DNA of 64,000 bases. It comes from Candidatus Marinacidobacterium sp. (GTDB lineage: Bacteria > Acidobacteriota > Vicinamibacteria > Marinacidobacterales > Marinacidobacteraceae). Under the pieces are notes generated by a model. It made no database searches, was not told the origin of the DNA, and was given only the letters and a program-made list of their open reading frames with translations. The position numbers were made by a program, and so were the translations under genes. This document shows positions 9,036 to 37,105 of this stretch, one piece after another. How positions within the stretch are numbered: the stretch's first letter is position 1; each line of letters starts with the position of its first letter. The DNA is taken from assembly GCA_965204755.1 (NCBI GenBank), contig OZ242011.1:3776001-3840000 (forward strand), given 5' to 3'.

Positions 9036-9956
9036 TCAGTCGCCGGGTTCTCGCGGAGTCAGCGACTCCAACTGCCTCCGGGCGGCGCGGGCCGCCGGAG
9101 TTCCGGCGTATATGTCCAGGATGTCTTCGAAAATGTCACGCGCATCGGATTCGTGTCCGAGGTGATGGAGGATGAAGCCCTTCTTGTACCAGGCCTCGCC
9201 GACCTTGTTGCTGTCGGGGAAATCGCGGATCACGATCTCGAACTGCTCGAGCGCCGGTTCGAGTTGCTCCACCGCGAGCAGCGCTTCGCCGATGCCGTAC
9301 CGGGCGTTGTCGGCGAGTTCGCCGCCCGCCGCCGCCACCCGCTCGAACCCGGCGACCGCGAGTTCGTAGCGGCCCTGCAGGTAGTCGGCCTGCGCTTCGA
9401 GATAGATCTCGGAGACGCTCGGTTCGTCGAGGACGACCGCCCCGGGGGCGGCCTCGTCCGCTTCGCCTTCGGCGTCCTCGTCCGGGGAGTCCGCCGGAGG
9501 CGGGCTGTCGGCGGGTTCCCCGCCGCCGTCCGAGGCCTCGCCGGACGCTTGGTCCGCCCCGTCGGCCGTCGCTCCGACCCTCGCCGCCCGGCGCTGCGCT
9601 TCGCGGACCGCCTCCACCTCGACCAGGAGCGCCGAGAGGCGGTCGTCGGCCTGGGCGAAGGACTCGCCGAGGGTCGAGACGCGCTGCTCCATCCGCTCGA
9701 GCGCGCTCGCGGTCTCGGCCCGGCTCCGCCGCTCGTCGGCGAGCGTTTCGCCGCGGTCGGCGAGCAGGGACTCCACCGCTTCGGCGAGGGAGTTCTGCGC
9801 GTCGGCCAAGGCGTTCAGTTGCGACTGGATCTGGCGGATCTCGGCCAGGATCCGGTCCTCTCCGCGCTGCGCGGCGGCCGCGGCCGGCAGCGCGAGGACA
9901 GCGGCGGCGACCGCGGCGAGCGGGAAGGGGCGGGGAGGCGCGGGCCGCGGGGTCAC
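9036..9956 (-). CDS. cpoB: Tol-Pal associated TPR protein CpoB/YbgF
   Basis: Signal peptide, coiled coil and TPRs (ADNARYGIGE, FPDSNKVGEAWYKKG); GTGA overlap with the pal stop. Confidence 0.8.
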   Translation of the reverse strand: MTPRPAPPRPFPLAAVAAAVLALPAAAAAQRGEDRILAEIRQIQSQLNALADAQNSLAEAVESLLADRGETLADERRSRAETASALERMEQRVSTLGESFAQADDRLSALLVEVEAVREAQRRAARVGATADGADQASGEASDGGGEPADSPPPADSPDEDAEGEADEAAPGAVVLDEPSVSEIYLEAQADYLQGRYELAVAGFERVAAAGGELADNARYGIGEALLAVEQLEPALEQFEIVIRDFPDSNKVGEAWYKKGFILHHLGHESDARDIFEDILDIYAGTPAARAARRQLESLTPREPGD

Positions 9957-10684
9957 CGGCCGATGATCTCCAGGTGGCCGCGGCGGTTGCGCCGCCAGGC
10001 GGTTTCGTCGTGGCCGGGATCGAGCGGGAATTCCTTCCCGTAACTGATGATCTGCAGGCGGTCGCCGGAGACGCCGAGGCGGACCAGGTAGTCCTGCACC
10101 GCGCGCGCCCGGCCCTCGCCGAGAGCCAGGTTGTATTCCACCGTCCCGCGTTCGTCGCAGTGGCCTTCGATCAGCACCCGGACGGTGGGGTAGCGGTTCA
10201 GCCAGGCGGCGTTCCGCTCCAAGGCCGCCCGGGCTTCGGCGCTGAGGTCGGCGCTGTCGTAGCCGAACTGGACATCGACCAGGACGCCCTGCTCGTTGAG
10301 TTCCTCGATGCTCATCGAGCCCACATCGAGAAGGTCCGCTTCCACCCCGGCTTCCGGGGGCAGCGCCAGGATCTCGTCTTCGGTGAGGCTGCTCGCCGAC
10401 CGGTCGGAACTTTCCGCGGCGGAGGAGGGCGTTCCGGCGGCGCCGGTCTCCGCCGGCGTCTCGGAGGGGGCGTCCGGGGCGCCGGTGGCGGGCGGGCGGC
10501 CGGTCGCGCAACCCGCGGCCCCGCCGAAGAAGGCCGAGCCGAGCGCGAACGCGAACAGGACCGGCGCCGCCCCGAGCCGGAGCGCCCGGCGCTCCCGCGC
10601 CGACGGGCGCTCCGTGGACTCTCTCCACGGGCTGTTCAGGGGGAGGCGGACGGGGCGGGCGGGGAGGGGCACGGGCGGAGTCAC
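9953..10684 (-). CDS. pal: Peptidoglycan-associated lipoprotein Pal
   Basis: Lipobox AAGC; OmpA-like motif IEGHCDERGTVEYNLALGEGRA...ISYGKEFP...NRR; GTGA overlap with the tolB stop. Confidence 0.9.
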   Translation of the reverse strand: MTPPVPLPARPVRLPLNSPWRESTERPSARERRALRLGAAPVLFAFALGSAFFGGAAGCATGRPPATGAPDAPSETPAETGAAGTPSSAAESSDRSASSLTEDEILALPPEAGVEADLLDVGSMSIEELNEQGVLVDVQFGYDSADLSAEARAALERNAAWLNRYPTVRVLIEGHCDERGTVEYNLALGEGRARAVQDYLVRLGVSGDRLQIISYGKEFPLDPGHDETAWRRNRRGHLEIIGR

Positions 10685-23764: not shown

Positions 23765-23797
23765 CCACGCGGAGTCGTACATTCGCCTGCTTCTATT

Positions 23798-23825
23798 TCT
23801 TAACATAACATCTCTTATCGGAAGT
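23798..23825 (-). other. dif-like XerC/XerD recombination site
   Basis: Minus strand ACTTCCGATAA-GAGATG-TTATGTTAAGA has the 11-6-11 architecture and a canonical TTATGTTAA XerD arm. Confidence 0.7.
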
Positions 23826-24162: not shown

Positions 24163-26664
24163 ATGTCCTTCCGCAGTTTCCTGAAACGCCTGAGCGGCCC
24201 GCTCCGCGCTGTTCCCGTGCGCTTGATGGGCCGCCTGGTCCGCGTCTTCCGACGGGCTGACGGTTCGAGCGGGCCTGCATCTGGGTGTGGAGAGACGGGA
24301 CAGCCGGAGTTGAACGAATCAACGCCGGACAAGCGGTCAACCGGTTCGGAGCCCGCGGGCACTGCTTCCCCGGACATCGAAGACCGAGATGGACCGACGC
24401 CGGGGCGAAATGACGGCAGTTCGCATGCGCCGGCACCCCTGCCCCAAAAGCCGGGGTCGCCCAACGGCGAAGGGCGCGCCGCCGAACCCGAGCCGGAGGC
24501 GGAAGGGACGATGGACATCACACCGCCGGTTGACGAGAGCCATGCCGATGCGGCAACCGGAGGTGCCCTCCCGGACACGCCGACTCGCGAACCCGACGAC
24601 CGTGCTGATCCCGCGTCTGCGGAGCCAAGACCACCGACGGTGTCTCCGCCGCGAGTGACGACCGAGGGGTCGAGGAGAGCGGGAGAACCTTGGAGGTTCG
24701 GACCGCGTCGCACGCAACATGACTCTGCCCTCGGAATCCGAAGTGACGCGGGCGCTTCTCCACCCGAACTCAGGATTCGCTACGCCGGCGGCAGGTGGGA
24801 AGTACTGCTCTCGGTTGACCCGAAAGCAGGCCCGTCCGAAGTGCTGCAAGGTGGGAATCCGCTTCGTCCTGCTCGGGATGGGGCTTGGCGCGTGCCCGAT
24901 TTCCGGCGAGACATCGAGGTAAGAACCGACAACGCTGGCGACGCAACGATACCCCTCTACACAGGAAGAGAGCCGCTTATCTTCCGGCTACCGGGGGCCG
25001 ATGGCGAGGGAACTCAGCGTCGTCGAATGACCGATCGTGGACGGTATGTCGTAATCGCGCCGGCAGGAGAACTCCGCCGCGACGAGATCGCGGTCTTTCG
25101 GGAGCACGAACCCTGTGGCGATCATCGTTTTGTCGCACATTTCTTCGACTCGTCTGCCGGGAGGGGGGCGGAAACGGTCGAGGGTTTCCCGGAGTGGGAC
25201 TACGGCGCTACAACGGGAAGTGCCTCCTTGGCCGGGCGCTCTATTTTCGACAGTTCCGAAGACGGAAAGTTGTTCGTTGGAGACGCGCCGACTTTGGATT
25301 CGACGGACGGAATCAAATGGGCTCGCATCGGTGAAGAGCGAGAGGGTGGGTGGAAGGGACGGAACTTTCTCGTCGCAGAAGAGAAGCCAGGCGATGTCCT
25401 GAACGGGGCATGTGGGAGATTCTTTCTCCGCACATATCGAACGGGGGAGACGCATCTGGCCGACTCGCGATCGTTTCGCTATTGGCCTGACCTGGAGAGG
25501 ATCGAACTCAACGGGAGAAAATTCGACTCGGAGCGCATCCTGATTCCGGGCACAGCGGGGCATGGGAAGGCGACCGTTCGGTTGGTCGGCCGAGTCGGTA
25601 GCGATCTGAAATTCGAACTCATGAACACCCAAGGGGCATCAGTCTCCACCGACGGGACGATTGCGGTTGCTCCGGACATCACGGCAGACGAGTTGCGCGT
25701 GCGCCTTTGCCGCGCTCCGTGGCACATGGATTTGGTCGTCGCCCTGCCGAGGGTCTGGTGGCGGCTGCAAGGAGATCGGAGCAACTGGAAATCTACTCCG
25801 CTCTCCATGTCTCGTCGAGAGTTCCGGAGCATCGCAACTCAGCGGCTTGAGATGCTCGTGCCGGAGTCCATCCCATCCGTCGAAGCCACACTTGGAAGCC
25901 AAATCGGCGAGTTCCCTGCGACGAGAACTGACGAGTCCGTTCACAAACGACTCTGCGCCATTCCTCTTGAGTACTTCGCGGATCACTCTGCCCTTCAAGA
26001 CGCCGGCGCACGGGAAGACGCTACGATCCGCGCCCGACTAAACGGATCGGAGGTGTGCATCATACATGTGCCCCCTGAACGGCCGCGACGAGCACTCAAA
26101 CCCCAATCGTCGCCCGTCCCCGCTCCGCCACACGAGATGCCGGCGACGCCGAGCCGGACGGAGCACACGGTTCTCAAGAACAGCGTGGTCGCCGTAGGTT
26201 GCGTGAGGGTTCGGGAACGCGACAAGAACATCTCCTTCACGGCTATGGCGATCGTCAGCGACGGGAACGGCCGCGTCGGCGTCGGTCATGGAACGGGGCG
26301 CGATGTACCGGCCGCGACCAAGAAGGGAATCGAGATCGCGACGAAGAATCTGGTGTCGGTGCGGCGGCAGGGACGTACTATCGCCCATGAGGTCGTTGGC
26401 GCCTTCGGTGGCGTTCGTGTCCTGATGAGTCCCGCTCCGGAGGGAACGGGGATCGTCGCGCGTAGATCGACGCGGGCAGCGGTGCGGGCCGTCATCGAAC
26501 TGGCGGGGATCAAGGACATCCTGATCCGATCGAGCGGGACTTCGAACCAGGAAAAGGCCGTCGCGGCGGTCGTCGAGGGCTTGCGTTCGCTCCGCTCGCC
26601 AGAAGTCGTAGCCGAATCTTCCGAAAGGGAGACCGGAGAGAGTCTCCCTGAGACGAGGAGGTAG
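24163..26664 (+). CDS. Uncharacterised 833-aa protein with a disordered N-terminus, a beta-rich core and a C-terminal ribosomal protein uS5-like domain
   Basis: C-terminal ~150 aa SFTAMAIVSDGNGRVGVGHG...DVPAA..KGIE.A.KNL...TIAHEVVG.FG...L..PAPEGTG...AVRAVIELAGIKDIL..S.G..N...LRSPEVVA matches the uS5 pattern; lies 8 nt upstream of the helicase. Confidence 0.75.
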   Translation: MSFRSFLKRLSGPLRAVPVRLMGRLVRVFRRADGSSGPASGCGETGQPELNESTPDKRSTGSEPAGTASPDIEDRDGPTPGRNDGSSHAPAPLPQKPGSPNGEGRAAEPEPEAEGTMDITPPVDESHADAATGGALPDTPTREPDDRADPASAEPRPPTVSPPRVTTEGSRRAGEPWRFGPRRTQHDSALGIRSDAGASPPELRIRYAGGRWEVLLSVDPKAGPSEVLQGGNPLRPARDGAWRVPDFRRDIEVRTDNAGDATIPLYTGREPLIFRLPGADGEGTQRRRMTDRGRYVVIAPAGELRRDEIAVFREHEPCGDHRFVAHFFDSSAGRGAETVEGFPEWDYGATTGSASLAGRSIFDSSEDGKLFVGDAPTLDSTDGIKWARIGEEREGGWKGRNFLVAEEKPGDVLNGACGRFFLRTYRTGETHLADSRSFRYWPDLERIELNGRKFDSERILIPGTAGHGKATVRLVGRVGSDLKFELMNTQGASVSTDGTIAVAPDITADELRVRLCRAPWHMDLVVALPRVWWRLQGDRSNWKSTPLSMSRREFRSIATQRLEMLVPESIPSVEATLGSQIGEFPATRTDESVHKRLCAIPLEYFADHSALQDAGAREDATIRARLNGSEVCIIHVPPERPRRALKPQSSPVPAPPHEMPATPSRTEHTVLKNSVVAVGCVRVRERDKNISFTAMAIVSDGNGRVGVGHGTGRDVPAATKKGIEIATKNLVSVRRQGRTIAHEVVGAFGGVRVLMSPAPEGTGIVARRSTRAAVRAVIELAGIKDILIRSSGTSNQEKAVAAVVEGLRSLRSPEVVAESSERETGESLPETRR

Positions 26665-26672
26665 ATGGACCG

Positions 26673-29600
26673 ATGCCCCATCGAAAAGACATCGACCGGT
26701 GGGTCGAGAAGATTCGGTCCCGGTATACGAGTTATCTTGCGACCTCGTTCTACTTTCGTGACCCGGCGCTTCGGAAATCTTTCGGGGACGCGCTCGGTGG
26801 CGAGGAACTGCTTCGTGGCCCGTACCCGGAATACGGGCGCCGCTTCCCTAAGGGAGTCTCCGCCCGAGAGTTGGCCTCCGAGACGTTCCCGAGCGGGGCG
26901 GAGGACCTGTTCCCTGCCCTCTTGGACGGACGCCTCCACGCGCATCAGGAACGGGCGATTCGGGCTGCCCATTTCGAGAATCGGAACATCGTCGTGGCGA
27001 GCGGTACGGCCAGCGGGAAAACCGAGTGCTTCCTCTATCCGATACTGTTCTCCCTCTTCGATGAGCACTTGGCGGGGACCGTCGACGAGAACGGTGTTCG
27101 GGCGGTGGTTCTCTATCCGATGAACGCCTTGGTGAACGATCAGCGGGAGCGACTTGGTGAACTACGCCGAAGGCTGGACGGACACGGGTCCGGGTTTGAG
27201 TTCACTTTCGGTCAGTACATCGGCCAGACCCCCTACAACTCACGAGACAGGTTTCGGCACGGTGCCGAGCGCGGACGAAGCGCTCTGCCGGGAGAGATCG
27301 TTTTTCGAGAGGAGATGTGGGAGAAGCCGCCCCACATCCTGTTTACGAACTACTCGATGCTCGAGTACCTCTTGCTGCGCCCGCAGGACACGCCCCTGTT
27401 CGACGGCGGCAGGGGCAGACACTGGCGCTTTTTGGTTCTCGACGAGGCGCACGCCTACCGGGGAGCCAAGGGCATCGAGATGGCGATGCTCGTTCGTCGC
27501 CTGAAACAACGGTTGAGAGAGGGTGGACGGACGCGGCCGTTTCGGTGCATCGCCACCAGTGCGACGATTGCGTCCGGGCACGGCAGAGAGGATCGCAGGG
27601 CCGTGGCCGACTTCGCGACGACGCTGTTCGGTGAAGAATTCGAGGATGAGGGTGTCGTGTTCGGCCTTCCCGAGAGTCGATCTGGCGCCGAGTCGGGCGA
27701 CATTCGTCGTCACCATGTGTTCGTGAGGGCGCTGGAAGGCGCCTTCCTGCTGCACGAAGAGGGCCGTGACCGCGTCGTCCTGAATCGCGTCCTCGGGGAC
27801 GCGGGATCGAGAGCTCCGGCGGTTCCGCTCGAGATCGCGCTGTGTCGGGAGTGTGGCCAGCACTACTATGTCGGTCGGGTGAGGAACGGGAGGCTGGTCG
27901 AGGCCGTGCGCGACCGTAGTCGTGGAGATTTCGGAGTGGATTTTTTCCGTCCGCTGTCGACGGATGAACCGCAGGCGTCCGGCCTTTCGCTGTGCCGGAG
28001 GTGCGGGGCGATCGGCCGAGGCGCGACCGGGTGCGGTTGCGGTGTGGAGGCAGCCGTTCAGAAGTGTGCGAACCGACCCGGCCATCCGGACCAGATCAAG
28101 AAATGTGGGAGTTGTGAGTACGCCCGCGGCGGCGTCGGGGATCCGGTTCAGGAAATCGTGCACGGCGCCGACGGGCCCAACGCCGTTCTTGCTACTGCGG
28201 TGCATGAACTGCTGCCTTCCGCGTCGAGACGAATCCTGGCGTTCGCGGACAGCAGACAGGACGCGGCCTTCTTCGCGTGGTACGCGGAGGACTCGTACAC
28301 GACGATTCGAGATCGGAATCTCATGGCGAGGGCGCTTCGCCGGGGAACGGAGGGTTGGCGACGAACCGATGAGGGGGGCGACGAAGGGTTGTCGATCGGG
28401 GATCTGGGTCGTCGGCTCGCGGCAGTGCGTCGCGAACGCGGTCTGACGAAGGCCGCCGACAGTTGGGAAACCGAGATCCGGGCGTCCCATGAGGCCGTTT
28501 TGCGGGAGGCCGTCGCCGAGGATGCGAGGTTGTCACTATCCGGCGTGGGACTCGCGGCGTGGGCGGTGGCCATTCCGAGCGACTTGCGTGTTCCGGCCGA
28601 ACTCCTTGCGCCGCCGTGGAATCTCAGTCCGCCGGAGGCTCGTCTGCTGCTTGAGCACCTTCTCGACGGGTTCCGGAGAGAGCCAGCCTTGTGCCTTCCG
28701 AAGTCACCGGATTTCCCGGCATGGAAGGCGGTGAGCACCCGGCCGGCAATGGCGTTCGCGCGCGGAACGCCGGCCGGGAGAACCAAGGTTCGAGAGTGGG
28801 GAGGCGCGCGGAGCGCGGTCGTCAGCCGGTTCCTGCCGCGGGTCGCCGACGCCTCGGGGCTCAGCCTGGCCGCGGCGCAGGTGGCGAGCCGCAGTCTCAT
28901 GAAGGCGATCTGGGTGGCTCTCAGGGATCGCGACGAGGCGGTGCGCGCCGAGGATCGGATGCTCGAACGGGCCGGGTCCGAGGGAACTTTCGCGCTGAAC
29001 AGCGGATGGTTGCGAGTTCGCTCGGCTGGGGCATCGGAATTGTGGGAATGCGAGACCTGCGCGCGTTTGACCGCGCGAAACATCCGAGGCGTCTGCCCGC
29101 GCAACTGGTGCCCCGGAATCCTTGCGCCGGCGGATCGAGGACGGCTCGACGAGAATCACTATCGGTCCCTGTACGAAGCGACAGACCTGCCGCCGACCTT
29201 GAAGGCGGCGGAGCACACGGCGCAGTTGGCGGACGACGAAGCCAGACGACGGCAGGCCGAGTTCAAGAGCGGCGACATCCATCTGCTCAGTTCGTCTACT
29301 ACCTTCGAGGTCGGAGTCGATCTGGGAGCGCTCGAAGTGACTTTTCTGCGAAATGTGCCCCCGGAGCCCTTCAACTACGCGCAACGGGTGGGACGGGCGG
29401 GGCGAGCGGCGCGCACCGGCCTGGCGCTCACTTACTGTCGCCGCAGTCCTCACGATCTGCACCACTTCTCGAATCCGGAGTCCTTGATCGAGGGGCGGGT
29501 TACGCCGCCTCGGCTTCTCGTCTCAAACGAGCGGATCGTTACGCGGCACATGACCGCGATCGCTCTGTCGGCGTTCTTCCGCGACTCGAATCGTGGCCAG

Positions 29601-30953
29601 GGGCTGGGCAGCGTCGAGGAGTTCATCGGTCCGGACTGGCGCCCGGCGTCAGCGCCGGAGGCGTTGCGGCAGTATTGTGAGAGTGATCGGGCCCCGCTCA
29701 CGACACTGCGTAGCGTCGTTCCTTCGGACATGCACGAGACTGTGGGACTTCACGACGGCGGATGGGTCGGACGGATTGCGGGTCCCGAGAGCCGGCTCGC
29801 GCGCGCTGCGGAGGAAGCGTGTGATGAATTCCGGAAACTGCAGGAATTGGTGGCCGATTTCATGAAGACCCGCGACTCCAGAATCAACCGTCTGCATCGC
29901 AGGATGGACACGATCGCGGGGATGAATGTCGTCCAATTCCTCGCGAGAAAAGCGGTCATTCCGAAGTACGGGTTCCCGGTGGATGTCGTCGAGTTGCACA
30001 CCGGTTCTTGGCGTGAGGGCGGGTCCGTGCAACTCGACCGGGATCTTTCCTTGGCCATTTCGGAGTACGCCCCCGGAAGTCGCGTGGTCGCGAATAAACT
30101 CGAGTGGCAGTCGTGCGGTATCCGGAGAGTGGATGGGCGGGAACCGCCTCGGCGACTGTACGCCTACGACCGGCAACGCTTTCTCGCGACGAACCTCGGT
30201 GATGCGGAGGGGCTGGTAGACGGGCACCGCCCCAAGGGCAAGTACTTGGTGCCGGAGTTCGGGTTCGTCGTGTCCGACAAGGAGAAACCGAGGCCTCCGG
30301 AGCGTCGCAGCCAAAGGCTGTTTTCGACTCGTCCCTTCTTCAGGAATTTCGTGCGCACGGAGTCGCTCGTGGCCGAGAGATCCGTCTTTGGCGTGCACGT
30401 GTCGGAGCCGCAGCCCGGTGAACTCGTCGTCCTGTGTGAGGGGAAGGAGGAGGGAGGGTTTCACCTCTGCGGACAGTGTGGCCGGTATGCGGAGAAACCG
30501 GGACCGCAGCACACTACGCCTTGGGGAGGATCCTGCTCTGGGGTCTTCTCCAGGTTCTCGCTGGGGCACGAAGTGACCACGGATGTCGTCAGAGCCCGAT
30601 TCCCGGAAGCGCTGGATGTCGCGGGGCTCTACTCGCTTGCGTACGCCTTGGCGCTCGGCGCTGCGGATGCCCTCGCCGTGCCGCAGCAGGACCTCGATGT
30701 CACCTTGAGTGGCGACGCCATCGTTCTCTACGATGATGTGCCCGGGGGAGCGGGCCTCGTACGGCAATTGACCGACGAGAGGGCGTTTCGCCGGGTGCTG
30801 GTGAAGTCCCGCGAACGCGTCGACGGGCGATGCGGGTGCGACCGTAGTTGCTACGGGTGTCTTCGCAGTTATCGCAACCAGTTCGTTCACACCCAGCTGG
30901 ACCGCGGGAAGGCGCTCGCGGTGCTTGACGAGGCTCTTCGGCGGACCGGCTGA
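26673..30953 (+). CDS. DEAH-box SF2 helicase with a C-terminal DUF1998 (MrfA-like Zn-binding) domain; DruE-like
   Basis: LHAHQ Q-motif, SGTASGKTE, YPMNAL, DEAH, TSAT, TTFEVGVDLG, YAQRVGRAGR, several CxxC pairs, LYDDVPGGAG and CGCDRSCYGCLRSYRNQ. Confidence 0.9.
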   Translation: MPHRKDIDRWVEKIRSRYTSYLATSFYFRDPALRKSFGDALGGEELLRGPYPEYGRRFPKGVSARELASETFPSGAEDLFPALLDGRLHAHQERAIRAAHFENRNIVVASGTASGKTECFLYPILFSLFDEHLAGTVDENGVRAVVLYPMNALVNDQRERLGELRRRLDGHGSGFEFTFGQYIGQTPYNSRDRFRHGAERGRSALPGEIVFREEMWEKPPHILFTNYSMLEYLLLRPQDTPLFDGGRGRHWRFLVLDEAHAYRGAKGIEMAMLVRRLKQRLREGGRTRPFRCIATSATIASGHGREDRRAVADFATTLFGEEFEDEGVVFGLPESRSGAESGDIRRHHVFVRALEGAFLLHEEGRDRVVLNRVLGDAGSRAPAVPLEIALCRECGQHYYVGRVRNGRLVEAVRDRSRGDFGVDFFRPLSTDEPQASGLSLCRRCGAIGRGATGCGCGVEAAVQKCANRPGHPDQIKKCGSCEYARGGVGDPVQEIVHGADGPNAVLATAVHELLPSASRRILAFADSRQDAAFFAWYAEDSYTTIRDRNLMARALRRGTEGWRRTDEGGDEGLSIGDLGRRLAAVRRERGLTKAADSWETEIRASHEAVLREAVAEDARLSLSGVGLAAWAVAIPSDLRVPAELLAPPWNLSPPEARLLLEHLLDGFRREPALCLPKSPDFPAWKAVSTRPAMAFARGTPAGRTKVREWGGARSAVVSRFLPRVADASGLSLAAAQVASRSLMKAIWVALRDRDEAVRAEDRMLERAGSEGTFALNSGWLRVRSAGASELWECETCARLTARNIRGVCPRNWCPGILAPADRGRLDENHYRSLYEATDLPPTLKAAEHTAQLADDEARRRQAEFKSGDIHLLSSSTTFEVGVDLGALEVTFLRNVPPEPFNYAQRVGRAGRAARTGLALTYCRRSPHDLHHFSNPESLIEGRVTPPRLLVSNERIVTRHMTAIALSAFFRDSNRGQGLGSVEEFIGPDWRPASAPEALRQYCESDRAPLTTLRSVVPSDMHETVGLHDGGWVGRIAGPESRLARAAEEACDEFRKLQELVADFMKTRDSRINRLHRRMDTIAGMNVVQFLARKAVIPKYGFPVDVVELHTGSWREGGSVQLDRDLSLAISEYAPGSRVVANKLEWQSCGIRRVDGREPPRRLYAYDRQRFLATNLGDAEGLVDGHRPKGKYLVPEFGFVVSDKEKPRPPERRSQRLFSTRPFFRNFVRTESLVAERSVFGVHVSEPQPGELVVLCEGKEEGGFHLCGQCGRYAEKPGPQHTTPWGGSCSGVFSRFSLGHEVTTDVVRARFPEALDVAGLYSLAYALALGAADALAVPQQDLDVTLSGDAIVLYDDVPGGAGLVRQLTDERAFRRVLVKSRERVDGRCGCDRSCYGCLRSYRNQFVHTQLDRGKALAVLDEALRRTG

Positions 30954-31340
30954 ATCGCCCGAATCCGGAGTCGCCCCGATGTCGGAGACGCCGAAGACCT
31001 TGATGCGGGAGGCCGGGATGAGTGGGCGATCGGGTAAGTCGGGGCGCCGGTATGCAGAGGACTACCGGCGGCGGATCGTGGAACTGGCGCGGGCCGGGCG
31101 TACGCCCGCGGATTTGGCCCGTGAGTTCGAGCCGAGCGCGCAGACGATCCGGAACTGGGTGGCGCAGGCGGATCGGGATGAGGGTCGGCGGTCGGACGGG
31201 TCGACGCGGGAGGAGCGGCGGGAGATCCGGGATTTGCGTCGTCAACTGCGGGATCTGAAGGAGGAGGTGGCCGTCCTGAAAGCGGCGCAGTCGTGGTTCG
31301 ATCGGGAGACCGAGTCCGACGGTTCCGATTCCTGACGGGC
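30951..31340 (+). mobile_element. IS3-family remnant: IR-like left end plus orfA (31018-31335); orfB absent
   Basis: TGAATCGCCC... end; orfA RRYAEDYRRRIVELARAGRTPADLAREFEPSAQTIRNWV with a leucine zipper; no DDE domain follows. Confidence 0.75.
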
Positions 31341-31483: not shown

Positions 31484-32770
31484 CTACCGGGTCCAGAGTT
31501 CGTGGAGGGATACGGCGAGGAGGCGGCGGTCGGGGAGGCGGTGGTTCTCGGGGCCGGTGTGGAGGATGAAGCCCCCGGCGAAGTCGTTGCCGCACCGGTC
31601 GGCGAGACGTTGGAGGCCCTTGCCGTCGGTCGGGCGGACGCTCCCGGAGGCCTTCACTTCGATACCCCAGACGCGTTCGTGGCGAGTCAGGACGAGATCC
31701 ACTTCCGCGCCGGCCCGGTCGCGGTAGTGGGACAGGCGCAGGTCGGGGTCGGTCCACGCCGCCTGCGCGGCGACCTGTTGGACGACGAAGGTCTCGAGCA
31801 AGGAGCCGAAGCGGTCCCGGCGTTCGAACCAGTCCGCTTCGGTGATGCCGGAGAGGGTGGCGGCGAGGCCGGCGTCCGCGAGGTGGATCTTCGCGGCCCG
31901 AGCCGGGCGCGGGACCGCGGGGTGGTGCCAAGCGGGAAGGCGGCGGATCAGGAACAGGCGTTCGAGGATGGCCAGGTACCGCTCCACGGTCGCCCGGTCG
32001 AGCGTCAGGTCGCGCGCCAGCCGCGCCTGGTTCAGCGGCTGGGCGGTGAGGGCGGCCAGGTGTTCGAGCAGCCGTTCCAGTCGCGAGGCGTCGCGGATGC
32101 GGTTGGCGTCGCGCGCGTCCTTCGCCATGATCGCCATCAGGTAGTCGCGCCTCCACTGCCGCGCATCGGCGGGGTCGCGGCGGACGGCCTCCGGGTAACC
32201 GCCGGCCACGACTCGGCGGGCCGCGTCCCTGCCCCCCTGCCCTCCGCCTTCGGCGCCGGCGGGCAACCGGACGGGAATGGCGCCGTCGAGGAGCGCCCGG
32301 AGGAAGAGCCCCGGCCGACGCCCCTTCTCGGACTCGGTGAGCGGGTGCAGGCGGATGATCGCCACTCGTCCGGCGAGGGACTCCGTCACGGTGGGCAGGA
32401 GGAGCAGGTCGCTCGATCCGGTGAGCAGGAAGCGGCCCGGCCGCCGGGCCTCGTCCACGGAGACCTTGATCGCGGGCAGGAGCGCCGGCGCCCGCTGGAC
32501 CTCATCTATGGCGACCCGATCCGGGAGATCGCCCACGAATCCGTCGGGATCCTCCCGGGCCAGCCGGCGCAGGCGCTCCCGGTCGAGATCCAGATAGGCC
32601 CGCTCCCGGTCGAGATGACGGACGAGCGTCGTCTTCCCGGCTTGGCGCGGCCCGGTGACCAACACCACCGGGGTGTTCTTCAGGGCCGCTCGGACGACCC
32701 CTTCCATGGAGCGCGGAAGAAGCCGCCCGCGAAACGGATCTGGGTTTCCGGGCGTGTCAGATTGCGGCAT
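31484..32770 (-). CDS. AAA+ ATPase with DUF4143 C-terminal domain
   Basis: GPRQAGKTT, IDEVQRAP, FLLTGSS, ESLAGR, GGYPEA, KIHLADAGL, EVDLV...IEVKAS. Confidence 0.88.
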   Translation of the reverse strand: MPQSDTPGNPDPFRGRLLPRSMEGVVRAALKNTPVVLVTGPRQAGKTTLVRHLDRERAYLDLDRERLRRLAREDPDGFVGDLPDRVAIDEVQRAPALLPAIKVSVDEARRPGRFLLTGSSDLLLLPTVTESLAGRVAIIRLHPLTESEKGRRPGLFLRALLDGAIPVRLPAGAEGGGQGGRDAARRVVAGGYPEAVRRDPADARQWRRDYLMAIMAKDARDANRIRDASRLERLLEHLAALTAQPLNQARLARDLTLDRATVERYLAILERLFLIRRLPAWHHPAVPRPARAAKIHLADAGLAATLSGITEADWFERRDRFGSLLETFVVQQVAAQAAWTDPDLRLSHYRDRAGAEVDLVLTRHERVWGIEVKASGSVRPTDGKGLQRLADRCGNDFAGGFILHTGPENHRLPDRRLLAVSLHELWTR

Positions 32771-32934: not shown

Positions 32935-33861
32935 TTGTCGCGCCTGCTGGAACGGATCGGCGCGGACAATCCCATGAGACCGTGCGCCGGGGGCCCCTAC
33001 GACTTCGAGTACCGCACCTATCCGGAGGTCGCTCTCCGGGAGGCGCTGATGAACGCGCTCTGCCACCGCGACCATCGGGTCGCCGGCCCGATCCTGGTGA
33101 AGCAGTACCGGGATCGGATCGAGATGACGAACGCCGGCGGCCTCATCGGCAACACCACCCCGGACAGCCACCTCCACCGGGCGCCGGCGGCCCGCAACCC
33201 GTGCCTCGTCGGGACGCTGCTGCGGTTGCGCCTTGTCAACCGCAGCAACTTGGGGAGGCATCGCATCTTCTCCCGCCTGCTGATGGAGGGGAAGGCGCCG
33301 ACGACGATCGAGGACCGCGACGGGGTCTATCGGATCGAGTTCCGCGCCTCGCCGGTGTCACCGGCGTTCCGCGCGTTCGTGGCCGACGAGGCGACGGAGC
33401 GCGGCGTGGCGCTCGGCGTGGACCAATTGCTCGTGCTGAACCACTTGCTCTTGCCGGCGGGGGAGGCCGATACGACGGAGTTGGCCCGGCGGTGTCAGCG
33501 CGCGGCCGGGGCGATGGAGGGAATCCTCGAGCGCATGGAGCAGGACCTCGGCTACCTGGAACGGAACGGGGAAGGTGATGTCCGGCGGGCGATCGAACTC
33601 GGAACCCCGGCGCGGCTGACGGCGGCGCGGAGCGCGGGCCCCGTGCCTCCCCGCGAGTGGGAGCCGGCGCGGGCGAGAGTCGAAGGGGTGATCCGGCGCC
33701 GGGCCGAGGGCGCCCGGGAGCCTCTTTCGAACTCCGATGTGCGCCGCATCACCGGGCTCGCCCGGAGGCAAGTGAACCGGTTGATCCAGGAACCGGTGCC
33801 GGACGGGAAGATACGGATCGTCGGCCAAGGCCGCGCCGCGCGGTATCTTCGGACCGGGTGA
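32935..33861 (+). pseudogene. N-terminally truncated AlbA_2/RecG-C (HATPase_c_4) transcriptional regulator-like gene
   Basis: YPEVALREALMNALCHRD, RIEMTNAGG, RNP and a C-terminal wHTH ending GQGRAARY; no N-terminal domain or good start. Confidence 0.6.
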
Positions 33862-35060: not shown

Positions 35061-35990
35061 TCAGCGGGAGCGGTTCAGGAAGTCCAGGAACTCGCTGTCG
35101 CTGCCGATCACCAGGGTCACGCCGTCGTCGAGCGCCGTGCGGTAGGTGTCCAGCGACTTCATGAACCGGTAGAAGTCCGCGTCCCGCTGGTAGGCCTGCG
35201 CGTAGATGCGGGAGGCCTCGGCGTCCGCCCGGCCGCGGACCTCCTCCGCCTGGCGGAAGGCCTCGGACTCGATGGACTTGAGTTCCCGTTCGCGCTGGCC
35301 CCGGATCTCGGCGGCCCTCCCCTGCCCTTCCGACCGGCTGCGCTCGGCGATCCGCTGGCGCTCCGAGATCATCCGCTCGTACACCTTGGCGCGGACCTCT
35401 TCCACATAGTTGAGCCGCTTGATGCGCACATCCACCAACTCGATCCCGAAACTCGGCGTCACCTCGGACGCCTTTTCGAGGATGCTGCGGGTGATGGCGT
35501 TGCGGCCGTGTTCGATGTCGCCGACCGCCTCCTCGGCGGCGAACGACACCAGGTCCTCGGTGATTTCGAACTCCCGGTCGGTGATGCGGACGATCTCGAT
35601 CAGGTCGAAGGTGGCGACCGCGTTCCGGGTCTCGCCGTCGATGATGTCGTCGAGGCGGCTCTGGGCGCCGCGCTCGTCGTGGACCGACTGGAAGAACAGC
35701 AGGGGGTCGGCGATCCGCCAGCGGGCGTAGGTGTCCACCCAGATGAACTTCTTGTCGCGCGTGGTGATCTGGTTCGCGTCACCGTCCCAGGGCAGCCACC
35801 GCTGGTCGAACCGGGTGACCCGGTGGATGAACGGGGCCTTGAAGTGGAGCCCCGGCTCGGTGACGGCGTCGCCGATGGGCTCGCCGAACTGCGTGATGAT
35901 GACCTGCTCGGTCTCGGAGACGGTGTAGGTCGCCGAGGCGAGCAGGATGAGCGCGAGGATCGCGCCGCCGACGGTCAGGAGCCCCTTCAT
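35061..35990 (-). CDS. hflC: FtsH protease modulator HflC
   Basis: SPFH domain: QFGEP..EPGLHFKAPFI, VYERMISERQRIA..RSEG, FYRFMKSL. Confidence 0.9.
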   Translation of the reverse strand: MKGLLTVGGAILALILLASATYTVSETEQVIITQFGEPIGDAVTEPGLHFKAPFIHRVTRFDQRWLPWDGDANQITTRDKKFIWVDTYARWRIADPLLFFQSVHDERGAQSRLDDIIDGETRNAVATFDLIEIVRITDREFEITEDLVSFAAEEAVGDIEHGRNAITRSILEKASEVTPSFGIELVDVRIKRLNYVEEVRAKVYERMISERQRIAERSRSEGQGRAAEIRGQRERELKSIESEAFRQAEEVRGRADAEASRIYAQAYQRDADFYRFMKSLDTYRTALDDGVTLVIGSDSEFLDFLNRSR

Positions 35991-37105
35991 CGCCGGCTCT
36001 CCCCGTCACGGACGCCGCCTCCCGGCGCCCCTCCCCCCGACGACCCCGACGGTCTGGCGGGCGCCTGCGCCCCCGGCCCTCCCCGAGCGCCGTTCAGGTT
36101 CAGCAACGGCAGGACATTCGCCCCGCTCTCGTCCACGATCACCTTCTGACCCAACCGGGGCATCACCTCCGAGATCGTCTCCAGGTACATCCGCGCCCGG
36201 GTCACCCGGGGGGCGTTCCGGTACTCGGCGTACACCGCTTCGAACCGGGAGGCCTCGCCCCGCGCGCGGTTCACCCGCTCGGCGGCGTAACCCTCGGCTT
36301 CCTGGATGAGCCGCTGCGCGTCGCCCCGGGCGCGGGGGATCGCCTGGTTGTACTCGGCGAGCGCCTCGTTGGTCAGCCGCTCCTTCTCCTGGATCGCCTC
36401 GTTGACCTCGTTGAAACTGGGCTTCACGGTGTCCGGCGGGTTCACATCCTGGAGCACCAACTGCTGGATGCTGATCCCGGTCTGGTAGCGGTCGTTGATC
36501 TCCTGCAGGAGGTCCTTGGCCTGGGCGGCGATCCGTTCCCGGCCCACGGTGAGCACCTCGTCCACGCTGTGGTCGCCGACCACATCGCGCATCGCCGCCT
36601 CGCTCATGTCCCGGAAGGTCGAGCGGATTTCCCGGACATTGAAGAGGTAGGCCCGGGGGTCCTGCACCTTGAACTGGACGATCCACTCCACGACCGCCAC
36701 ATTGAGGTCGCCGGTGAGCATGAGCGACTCCTCGAGGAAGTGGCGCTCGTCGTACACCGTCCGCACGCCGGCGCTCACCGTGCGGAAGCCGAACTCTTCC
36801 TTGAGTTGCCGCTCCACCGGGACCTTGGTGACCGACTCGATGAACGGGAGGACGAAGTGGAGGCCGGGGTCGGTGACCCGCGAATAGCGGCCGAACCGGG
36901 TCACCACGCCGGCCTCGTCGGGCTGGACCTGATAGACCGAGGTGAAGAACAGGATCAGCGCCAGAACCCCGCCGCCGATCCCGTAGAGCGTCCGTTTCGA
37001 AGTCCCGGCGAGGCGCGTCAGCAGCGCCTCGATGTCCGGGCGGCCGGAGCCGTCCCCCCGGAACGGCGAAAACGGGCCGTTTCCAACCCCATCCTGGAAT
37101 GCCAT
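35987..37105 (-). CDS. hflK: FtsH protease modulator HflK
   Basis: ESLMLTGDLN, LQDVNPP, IPRARG.A, APRVTRARMYLET. Confidence 0.9.
   Translation of the reverse strand: MAFQDGVGNGPFSPFRGDGSGRPDIEALLTRLAGTSKRTLYGIGGGVLALILFFTSVYQVQPDEAGVVTRFGRYSRVTDPGLHFVLPFIESVTKVPVERQLKEEFGFRTVSAGVRTVYDERHFLEESLMLTGDLNVAVVEWIVQFKVQDPRAYLFNVREIRSTFRDMSEAAMRDVVGDHSVDEVLTVGRERIAAQAKDLLQEINDRYQTGISIQQLVLQDVNPPDTVKPSFNEVNEAIQEKERLTNEALAEYNQAIPRARGDAQRLIQEAEGYAAERVNRARGEASRFEAVYAEYRNAPRVTRARMYLETISEVMPRLGQKVIVDESGANVLPLLNLNGARGGPGAQAPARPSGSSGGGAPGGGVRDGESRR

Follow-up and report, generated by a model that had tools for sequence, protein, structure and literature searches.

A DruE-type helicase and an Ig-like partner protein with exchangeable C-terminal tails form a conserved bacterial gene pair

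The gene pair and its products

The window analysed here, 64,000 nucleotides of Candidatus Marinacidobacterium sp. (assembly GCA_965204755.1, contig OZ242011.1, positions 3,776,001 to 3,840,000), contains two genes on the same strand that are separated by 8 nt. The first encodes an 833-amino-acid (aa) protein, P0001, referred to as the partner, whose C-terminal tail is a diverged copy of ribosomal protein uS5, and the second encodes P0002, a 1426-aa helicase (Table 1). We found this pair to be a conserved two-gene module in which the tail of the partner differs among relatives, and we read it, with slightly better than even confidence, as a defence module resembling type III Druantia. The original prediction, made from the window sequence, had described an open reading frame (ORF) with a beta-rich core, a Pro-rich linker and a recognisable diverged uS5 domain, followed by a superfamily 2 helicase with a DUF1998-type end. 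This anatomy was confirmed by Pfam, TIGR01021 and the AlphaFold2 fold for the partner, and by the Pfam families DEAD, Helicase_C and MZB for the helicase.

Table 1 Features of the gene pair and its surroundings, in window coordinates (GC3, GC content at third codon positions; IS, insertion sequence)
Feature	Position	Strand	Description or basis
Partner gene (P0001, 833 aa)	24163-26664	+	N-terminal segment, Ig-like core, Pro-rich linker, uS5 head
Partner aa 1-179	24163-24699	+	Conserved basic N-terminal segment MSFRSFLKRL..., variable low-complexity region, conserved EPWRFGxRR; translations, alignment consensus
Partner aa 180-645	24700-26097	+	Tandem Ig-like beta-sandwich core, defines the family; AlphaFold2 model, Foldseek
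Partner aa 646-668	26098-26166	+	Pro-rich linker, point of tail exchange among relatives; P0001 compared with P0011/P0012, pLDDT <50
Partner aa 669-821	26167-26625	+	Complete but diverged uS5, both Pfam domains; Pfam, TIGR01021, fold search
GAGGAGG	26655-26661	+	Shine-Dalgarno-like for the helicase gene, within the 3' end of the partner gene
Helicase gene (P0002, 1426 aa)	26673-30953	+	Compact DruE/YprA type, no nuclease domain detected (Pfam, PADLOC)
Helicase aa 90-300	26940-27572	+	DEAD/RecA1 region, GTASGKT and DEAH motifs; Pfam, translation
Helicase aa 842-912	29196-29408	+	Helicase_C/RecA2; Pfam
Helicase aa 1322-1397	30636-30863	+	MZB (PF09369, DUF1998) zinc-binding domain; Pfam
dif-like site, TTCTTAACATAA-N6-TTATCGGAAG	23797-23824	no strand	Left edge of low-GC3 island
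IS remnant	30925-31335	+	HTH_Tnp_1 only; overlaps the helicase stop codon
AAA_14/DUF4143 ATPase	31484-32770	-	Downstream of the IS remnant
HATPase_c_4 protein	32935-33861	+	Towards the right end of the island

The low-complexity stretch near the N-terminus of the partner is disordered, acidic or Pro-rich and variable among relatives, and the core that follows it consists nearly entirely of beta strands. Since a fold search with a model of core and tail together was swamped by uS5 matches, the core was modelled separately, giving an AlphaFold2 model with a predicted local distance difference test score (pLDDT) of 87.6 and a predicted template modelling (TM) score of 0.81. The Foldseek matches of this model are proteins with multiple immunoglobulin-like (Ig-like) domains, including SbsC, contactin Ig1-6 and Robo (E values down to 4.8e-7), at TM-scores of 0.07-0.26, which are low, as expected for flexible chains, and which support the domain type and no specific relative. 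Scores of 0.75 in a search of the ESM Atlas were too low to count as a lead.

Both Pfam domains of uS5 are present in the tail, Ribosomal_S5 at aa 682-734 (E 4.7e-12) and Ribosomal_S5_C at aa 746-819 (E 3.3e-20), and the rpsE model TIGR01021 is covered over positions 7-151 of 156. An AlphaFold2 model of aa 180-833 (pLDDT 84) aligned with solved uS5 chains in Foldseek at target-normalised TM-scores of 0.75-0.81. The tail is thus like housekeeping uS5 (RpsE) in its domains, its near full-length coverage and its fold, but it is unlike it in standing behind 668 other residues, in falling under the rpsE cut-off (cut-off 164; 117 bits as a protein, 121 bits when the genome was searched) and in lying away from the ribosomal protein cluster. 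The normal rpsE of this genome is at 1.338 Mb, where it scores 214 bits on TIGR01021 and has a neighbour that was read by eye as rplR. Tail and host uS5 are 57% identical (dN, the nonsynonymous divergence, 0.31; dS, the synonymous divergence, 1.16; dN/dS ~0.26). Identity of the tail is 55-58% to the uS5 of four Acidobacteriota-type genomes versus 39-42% to two from other phyla, indicating that it was derived from an Acidobacteriota-type uS5. Compared with its relative P0007, P0001 is 90% identical in the tail and 74% in the core, and compared with P0008-P0010 it is 56-69% identical in the tail and 77-78% in the core. These comparisons indicate that the uS5 tail of the window copy is still under constraint.

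The helicase P0002 matched the PADLOC models DruE1 (4.5e-139) and DruE3 (7.3e-137), as well as solved large DEAD/DEAH helicases (9tu7_Y, 9.3e-73) and YprA, and its translation contains several CxxC clusters. Pfam found neither a PLD-type nor another nuclease family in it, and the protein stops 29 aa after the MZB domain. A complex predicted from helicase residues 300-840 and partner core residues 16-461 scored 0.00 against a mark of 0.32, a result that is neutral on binding.

Linkage and tail exchange across the family

A search with the partner core (aa 180-656) against 1.84 billion representative proteins returned 387 representative clusters at E<=1e-3, 237 of them at E<=1e-30. The one named member among eight that were looked up is called 'hypothetical protein'. 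The analysis names this family of about 390 representative clusters and places it in context. Genome loci numbered 31, of which 30 came from species-representative genomes, with a 12-sequence alignment as query, and one from a sample of the window's phylum. At 28 of these 31, a helicase relative, either full-length or truncated by the contig end, lies directly 3' of the partner on the same strand. The same holds for 10 of 12 loci on JGI metagenome contigs, the other two of which end 87 and 164 nt past the partner match. Of the 39 genome and metagenome loci with sequence downstream of the partner, 38 therefore have the helicase. The contig runs out in four of the five exceptions, two of which are 3-kb genome contigs that end at the partner. 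The fifth, locus L034 in a metagenome-assembled genome of Dehalococcoidia, holds at 9299-10648 a partner fragment limited to residues 211-425; a helicase is absent for 10 kb around it, and the fragment is probably a decayed remnant of the module.

The linked helicases form a tight group, scoring 1157-1986 bits against P0002, and the 22 that were recovered as a single ORF are ~1400-1540 aa long. Seventeen of these are 53-64% identical to P0002, while the partners are only 25-40% identical to P0001, indicating that the partner evolves faster. Helicases linked to DruH, the partner of DruE in type III Druantia, lie outside the group (2066-2075 aa, only 246-254 bits against P0002), and two DruE-like helicases encoded on plasmids scored 395 and 477 bits. 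Judged by record titles, the hosts of the family are Acidobacteriota (including Vicinamibacteria), Dehalococcoidia, Alpha- and Gammaproteobacteria, Binatia, Poribacteria, Spirochaetia and Thermodesulfobacteriota. The core was present in one of 400 other sampled genomes of the window's phylum, a patchy distribution. A scan of 104 neighbouring ORFs from 27 loci found no family in more than two and no conserved third gene. Defence-related or mobile genes stand beside the pair at some loci (PDC-S01, PsyrT/PsyrA, a type II restriction enzyme with methylase, DpdF, MkoA, HEC-09, PIN, a DDE transposase and a TrwC relaxase). Together, these comparisons indicate that the pair is horizontally acquired, mobile, patchy in distribution and strictly linked.

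Tails were classified in 167 proteins, made up of the best 150 of the 387 representatives and 19 proteins from a query with P0001, two of them in both sets. Purpose-built hidden Markov models were used for the classes and examples were checked with Pfam and NCBIfam; the likeness of some tails to CarD was read by eye. Among the 150 representatives, 110 end in a tail resembling the ribosomal protein eL13, five in uS5, three in a NusA-KH tail and one in NusB plus an eL13-like tail. About 16 carry other tails, mostly without an assigned family, and 15 have a short tail or none, although many of these may be truncated gene calls. Across all 167 there are 16 uS5, five NusA-KH, three CarD-like tails and one bS18 tail, and a further search raised these numbers by one for bS18, by two for NusA-KH and by several for uS5. 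In 72 of the 167 the order is plainly core, Ig, eL13, with an extra Ig-like domain ahead of the eL13-like tail.

Example tails gave matches to Pfam KH_5 (E 2.9e-18), Ribosomal_S18 (9.3e-21) and NusB (1.4e-20). The bS18 tail of P0019 scored 73.1 bits (cut-off 38.75) and the NusB tail of P0145 scored 96.7 bits (cut-off 88.35), while a NusA tail covered model positions 202-335 of 340 (2.6e-33). The archaeal L13e model NF008914 matched the dominant tail over positions 6-75 of 83 (3.9e-14), and a family profile run against solved structures had eL13 as its best match (E 1.7e-9), with only eL13 among the 60 matches listed of 82; an archaeal-type eL13 motif is thus widespread in bacteria. One tail is TrcR-like (2.3e-10) and another weakly HhH-like. 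The CarD label is borderline, as CarD_TRCF_RID gave 22.7 bits on P0012 against a cut-off of 23, and P0012 had no match in the PDB. Individual members vary further: in P0145 NusB is followed by the eL13-like motif, in P0100 this motif is interrupted by an insertion, and P0084 has an N-terminal DUF4389 domain (1.3e-17).

The exchange is sharpest between close relatives. The cores of P0011 and P0012 are 65-68% identical to that of P0001, and the first 30 residues of P0011 are, by eye, nearly the same as those of P0001. From the linker onward the difference is complete, with a CarD-like tail in place of uS5. These observations indicate that the tail of the partner is a modular, swappable head, and that all heads that could be identified are RNA-, ribosome- or RNA-polymerase-binding proteins or motifs. 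The original prediction had taken the partner to carry a captured ribosomal domain. This is correct for the window copy, where uS5 is present; in the family uS5 is a minority head and the eL13-like head dominates. A check proposed with the original prediction had the positive outcome: the C-termini of the core homologues proved swappable and related to translation or transcription (eL13-like, uS5, bS18, NusA-KH, NusB and CarD-like). An assembly or annotation artefact near 26100 is extremely improbable, and nothing was found in its favour. The arrangement of core, linker and uS5 recurs in 16 of the 167 family proteins, and the same fusion is present in the genome assemblies of loci L005, L006 and L030, the first and last of which are complete chromosomes, and in the JGI contigs L061 and L062. 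These independent assemblies exclude a chimeric junction.

Several heads originate from host genes. Measured against the uS5 of the same four Acidobacteriota-type genomes, which include that of the window, the uS5 heads range from nearly native sequences to strongly diverged ones, with identities of 86-93% for L005, P0015 and P0013, 73-76% for P0010, 53-62% for the group of P0001 and 32-38% for the others. In the genome of L005 (G401, C1:2429681-2430136), the fused uS5 scores 212.7 bits on TIGR01021 and the genome's own rpsE 211.5. The two are 92% identical, with dN 0.048 and dS 0.38. Because rpsE genes of different genomes are separated by dS 0.8-1.1, this value points to a head that was captured from, or converted by, the gene of the host lineage itself. 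A uS5-domain tree, from which the identical row P0026 was dropped, left 10 of 20 inner branches open and does not settle single versus multiple captures. P0019 carries a bS18 tail with 85% identity to the bS18 of the window genome. That genome also has a second, free-standing CarD-like gene (C1:276405-276917) with a long N-terminal extension rich in Pro, Ala and Glu, to which the CarD-like tail of P0011 is 87% and that of P0012 83% identical over 171 aa. The tails of P0011, P0012 and P0014 apparently derive from this gene. Pfam CarD (PF02559) did not match it at E<=0.01, and the only matches of that model in the genome were Mfd and a 210-aa CarD. The tail shared by L010 and L013 has a 39%-identical free-standing paralogue of 173 aa in genome G404 (L074, 1381-1899, minus strand), with an acidic N-terminal region and a very acidic C-terminal end. 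This paralogue had no match in the PDB; it may resemble an RNA polymerase delta/HARE-HTH protein. The relationship suggests that this tail is another host-derived head. The tail of L008 had no paralogue in its own genome. As the fused uS5 of L005, bS18 of P0019 and NusB of P0145 reach NCBI naming cut-offs, such heads are at risk of being mis-annotated as second ribosomal or Nus genes.

The host origin of these heads raises the possibility of an integrated decoy, in which the head imitates, as bait, a host protein that is bound or modified by phage factors (uS5, bS18, NusA, NusB or CarD-like) and an attack on the bait would switch the helicase on. In plants, nucleotide-binding leucine-rich repeat (NLR) immune receptors carry integrated decoys, which are fused copies of host proteins that differ among relatives. 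By analogy, the partner would also be an immune-type protein with a fused host-protein copy that differs between relatives, although the kingdom and the receptor scaffold are different and the commonest head here, the eL13-like one, does not copy any protein of the host. The heads comprise entire host proteins and not mere motifs, several share 83-93% identity with proteins of the host lineage itself, the uS5 of L005 is closest at the DNA level to the rpsE of its own host, and close relatives differ in their heads, all of which would be expected of baits. The 110 eL13-like heads among 150 representatives argue against a pure decoy. A free-standing eL13-like gene was absent from all five bacterial host genomes tested, in which the tail itself was the sole L13e match, so most members cannot mimic a host protein. 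In addition, high identity may merely reflect recent capture, and we know of no phage factor that targets uS5 or bS18. We therefore regard the decoy as a minority explanation; if the heads do act as baits, integrated decoys would exist in bacteria. Equally speculative is a broader proposal, in which a widespread bacterial immune family repeatedly captures whole host proteins of gene expression (uS5, bS18, NusA, NusB and a CarD-like factor) and attaches them to an Ig-like receptor in control of a Druantia-type helicase, where they would serve as baits for, or plugs into, the ribosome and RNA polymerase machinery subverted by phages. If true, this would be a bacterial counterpart of the plant NLR integrated decoys and would link the hijacking of translation or transcription directly to DNA-targeting defence.

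Comparison with known systems and possible function

Type III Druantia consists of DruH and DruE. The literature describes a compact III-B form in which DruE has no PLD domains, a branch of III-like helicases that mostly lack nucleases, and DruH as a YjiT-family protein with Ig-like domains that binds single-stranded DNA and is likely the sensor. DruH diverges faster than DruE according to one study (10.64898/2026.05.12.724681), and how Druantia senses infection was still debated in preprints from 2026. The pair described here is like type III Druantia in being a two-gene operon with the large partner gene first and no other conserved gene. It is also alike in having a DruE/YprA helicase that contains CxxC-rich inserts and has MZB/DUF1998 at its end, and an Ig-like-rich partner that diverges faster than the helicase. 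In its compact DruE without a nuclease it resembles III-B-like systems. It is unlike III-A, as the window helicase has no C-terminal PLD-type nuclease and is 1426 aa long versus 2066-2075. The family partner also differs from DruH in lacking a YjiT-type N-terminal domain. Its N-terminus is disordered instead, and its C-terminal head, related to translation or transcription, is swappable.

Searches aimed at DruH were negative: PDLC00038 (DruH3) had no match in the window genome, and hhalign of the family alignment against four DruH sequences from Pseudomonadota genomes gave a probability of 0.5%. The DruH profile finds solved DruH (9tud_A) at 4.5e-55, whereas the family profile had only eL13 among its 60 listed matches of 82, and 9tud was absent from the fold-search matches in a library that ends on 2026-04-08. 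The DruH profile is thin, however, and it also missed the Clostridium butyricum plasmid partner of a DruE-like helicase, a protein that itself has no PADLOC match. BLASTP of P0001 against that same plasmid partner found nothing. Because this partner was likewise missed by BLASTP, PADLOC and the DruH profile, negative sequence tests between DruE partners have little power, and the Ig-like parts may share a common origin with DruH. The earlier proposal of a Druantia-III-like module holds as far as the DruE-type helicase and the linked partner are concerned, with PADLOC naming DruE1 and DruE3 for the helicase. It does not extend to the identity of the partner, for which PADLOC named nothing and which is not detectably DruH or YjiT.

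Two other systems invite comparison. TALON combines TBP, a cold-shock domain and a YprA-family helicase, and CoCoNuT includes an SmpB-like fold and Hsp70 (10.1101/2025.09.15.676423, PMC10542128). TALON/TOTE and CoCoNuT are like the window pair in being defence operons with domains borrowed from the transcription or translation apparatus, and TALON also in its YprA-family helicase, but they differ in their domains, gene content and architecture. The literature searched makes no mention of uS5, bS18, eL13, NusA, NusB or CarD in such defence systems. The core family appears to be undescribed in this literature; Supplementary Tables S1 and S2 of 10.1101/2025.09.15.676423 may list the clade or the partner.

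Given this comparison, we consider it somewhat probable that the two genes form a self-contained module of the Druantia/ARMADA helicase lineage that moves horizontally and is most likely anti-phage. The compact DruE-type 3'-5' helicase with its MZB domain would be motor and effector, acting on phage DNA, and the partner would be its sensor or adaptor, a fast-evolving Ig-like chain bearing an exchangeable C-terminal head, which in the window genome is a diverged copy of the lineage's own uS5. The head would anchor the partner to RNA or to the transcription-translation apparatus and bring the helicase along with it, or would read the state of that apparatus, and phage gene expression or replication intermediates would be met at this docking place. 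Heads that guide the system in this way to RNA, ribosomes or RNA polymerase would couple a defence based on a DNA helicase to host gene expression. Because one helicase and one scaffold are combined with interchangeable heads of known biochemistry, the family would also serve as a natural experiment for Druantia sensing.

Several observations weigh against this reading. PADLOC models gave no match at E<=1 for P0001 and nine relatives, Pfam found no nuclease or other killing domain in partner or helicase, and searches of phage, IMG/VR and plasmid collections did not find the core family. Many neighbours of the pair, among the 104 ORFs scanned at 27 loci, are housekeeping genes. Bacterial ribosomes contain no equivalent of the dominant eL13-like head. 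For the window copy, the shortfall of the tail on the rpsE model counts against docking through uS5, as does a local change, in which KVVKGGKNLSF of the host uS5 reads RVRERDKNISF in the P0001 tail and a few extra residues precede VRAVIELAGI. Since we take the KVVKGGKN stretch to be the rRNA-contacting loop of uS5, binding to or incorporation into the ribosome by the window uS5 copy is doubtful.

The same features of the tail would be expected of a relic that decays and contributes nothing, leaving the work to the Ig-like core and the helicase. Its 117 bits against a cut-off of 164, its identity of only 57% to host uS5, the altered KVVKGGKN segment with its few inserted residues, and the 15 of 150 representatives with a short tail or none (many perhaps truncated gene calls) are in keeping with decay. 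However, the reading frame is intact, the tail is confidently modelled in the uS5 fold, the tail is better conserved than the core towards P0007 (90% vs 74%), and dN/dS towards the host gene is ~0.26. We consider a relic improbable.

The lack of a nuclease or toxin domain, the many housekeeping neighbours and the binding of the heads to the transcription and translation machinery would also suit a role outside defence, namely an accessory helicase for DNA repair, R-loops or conflict resolution that is recruited by its head to stalled RNA polymerase or ribosomes. Recruitment of this kind has an analogue in Mfd, which has an RNA-polymerase-interacting domain. The YprA family includes a repair branch, MrfA (10.1101/2025.09.15.676423). 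However, the best matches of P0002 are DruE models and not repair helicases (TIGR03817 111 bits, cut-off 874). The presence in one of 400 other genomes, the foreign GC3 of both genes, the rapid divergence of the partner, and the IS fragment and defence genes nearby likewise speak against a repair role. This explanation seems to us rather unlikely, and the Druantia-III-like defence module remains the reading we prefer.

Surroundings of the pair in the window

The genes 5' of the pair are housekeeping genes (MiaB-like, bifunctional nuclease, ParA, ParB, flavin reductase and a PEGA protein). A domain scan of neighbouring window genes found no ribosomal genes near the pair, and GC3 is 0.68 in the partner gene and 0.75 in the helicase gene versus 0.83-0.96 in flanking genes. 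The predicted drop in GC3, the adjoining IS remnant (HTH_Tnp_1) and the absence of ribosomal neighbours were thus all borne out. Proteins of the AAA_14/DUF4143 family, encoded downstream of the IS remnant, also stand beside the pair at two other loci (two of the 104 neighbour ORFs).

At the left edge of the low-GC3 island lies the dif-like element, which we take to resemble the dif site of Escherichia coli. Its architecture, ACATAA-N6-TTAT (at 23803), occurs only here in the 3.98-Mb genome, and the window falls where the cumulative GC skew stays at its maximum, a plateau that runs from ~3.8 Mb to the contig end. A second copy was not found within the window with up to 9 mismatches allowed, and no second site flanks the island. 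The dif-like site of the original prediction is plausible, not proven. The genes parA and parB lie 4 kb upstream of the element despite the skew-maximum plateau. Further to the right, two adjacent SPFH/Band_7 genes (35061-37105, minus strand) are located where the local cumulative GC skew stops climbing (~35-36 kb), and around them GC3 is back at the level of the host.

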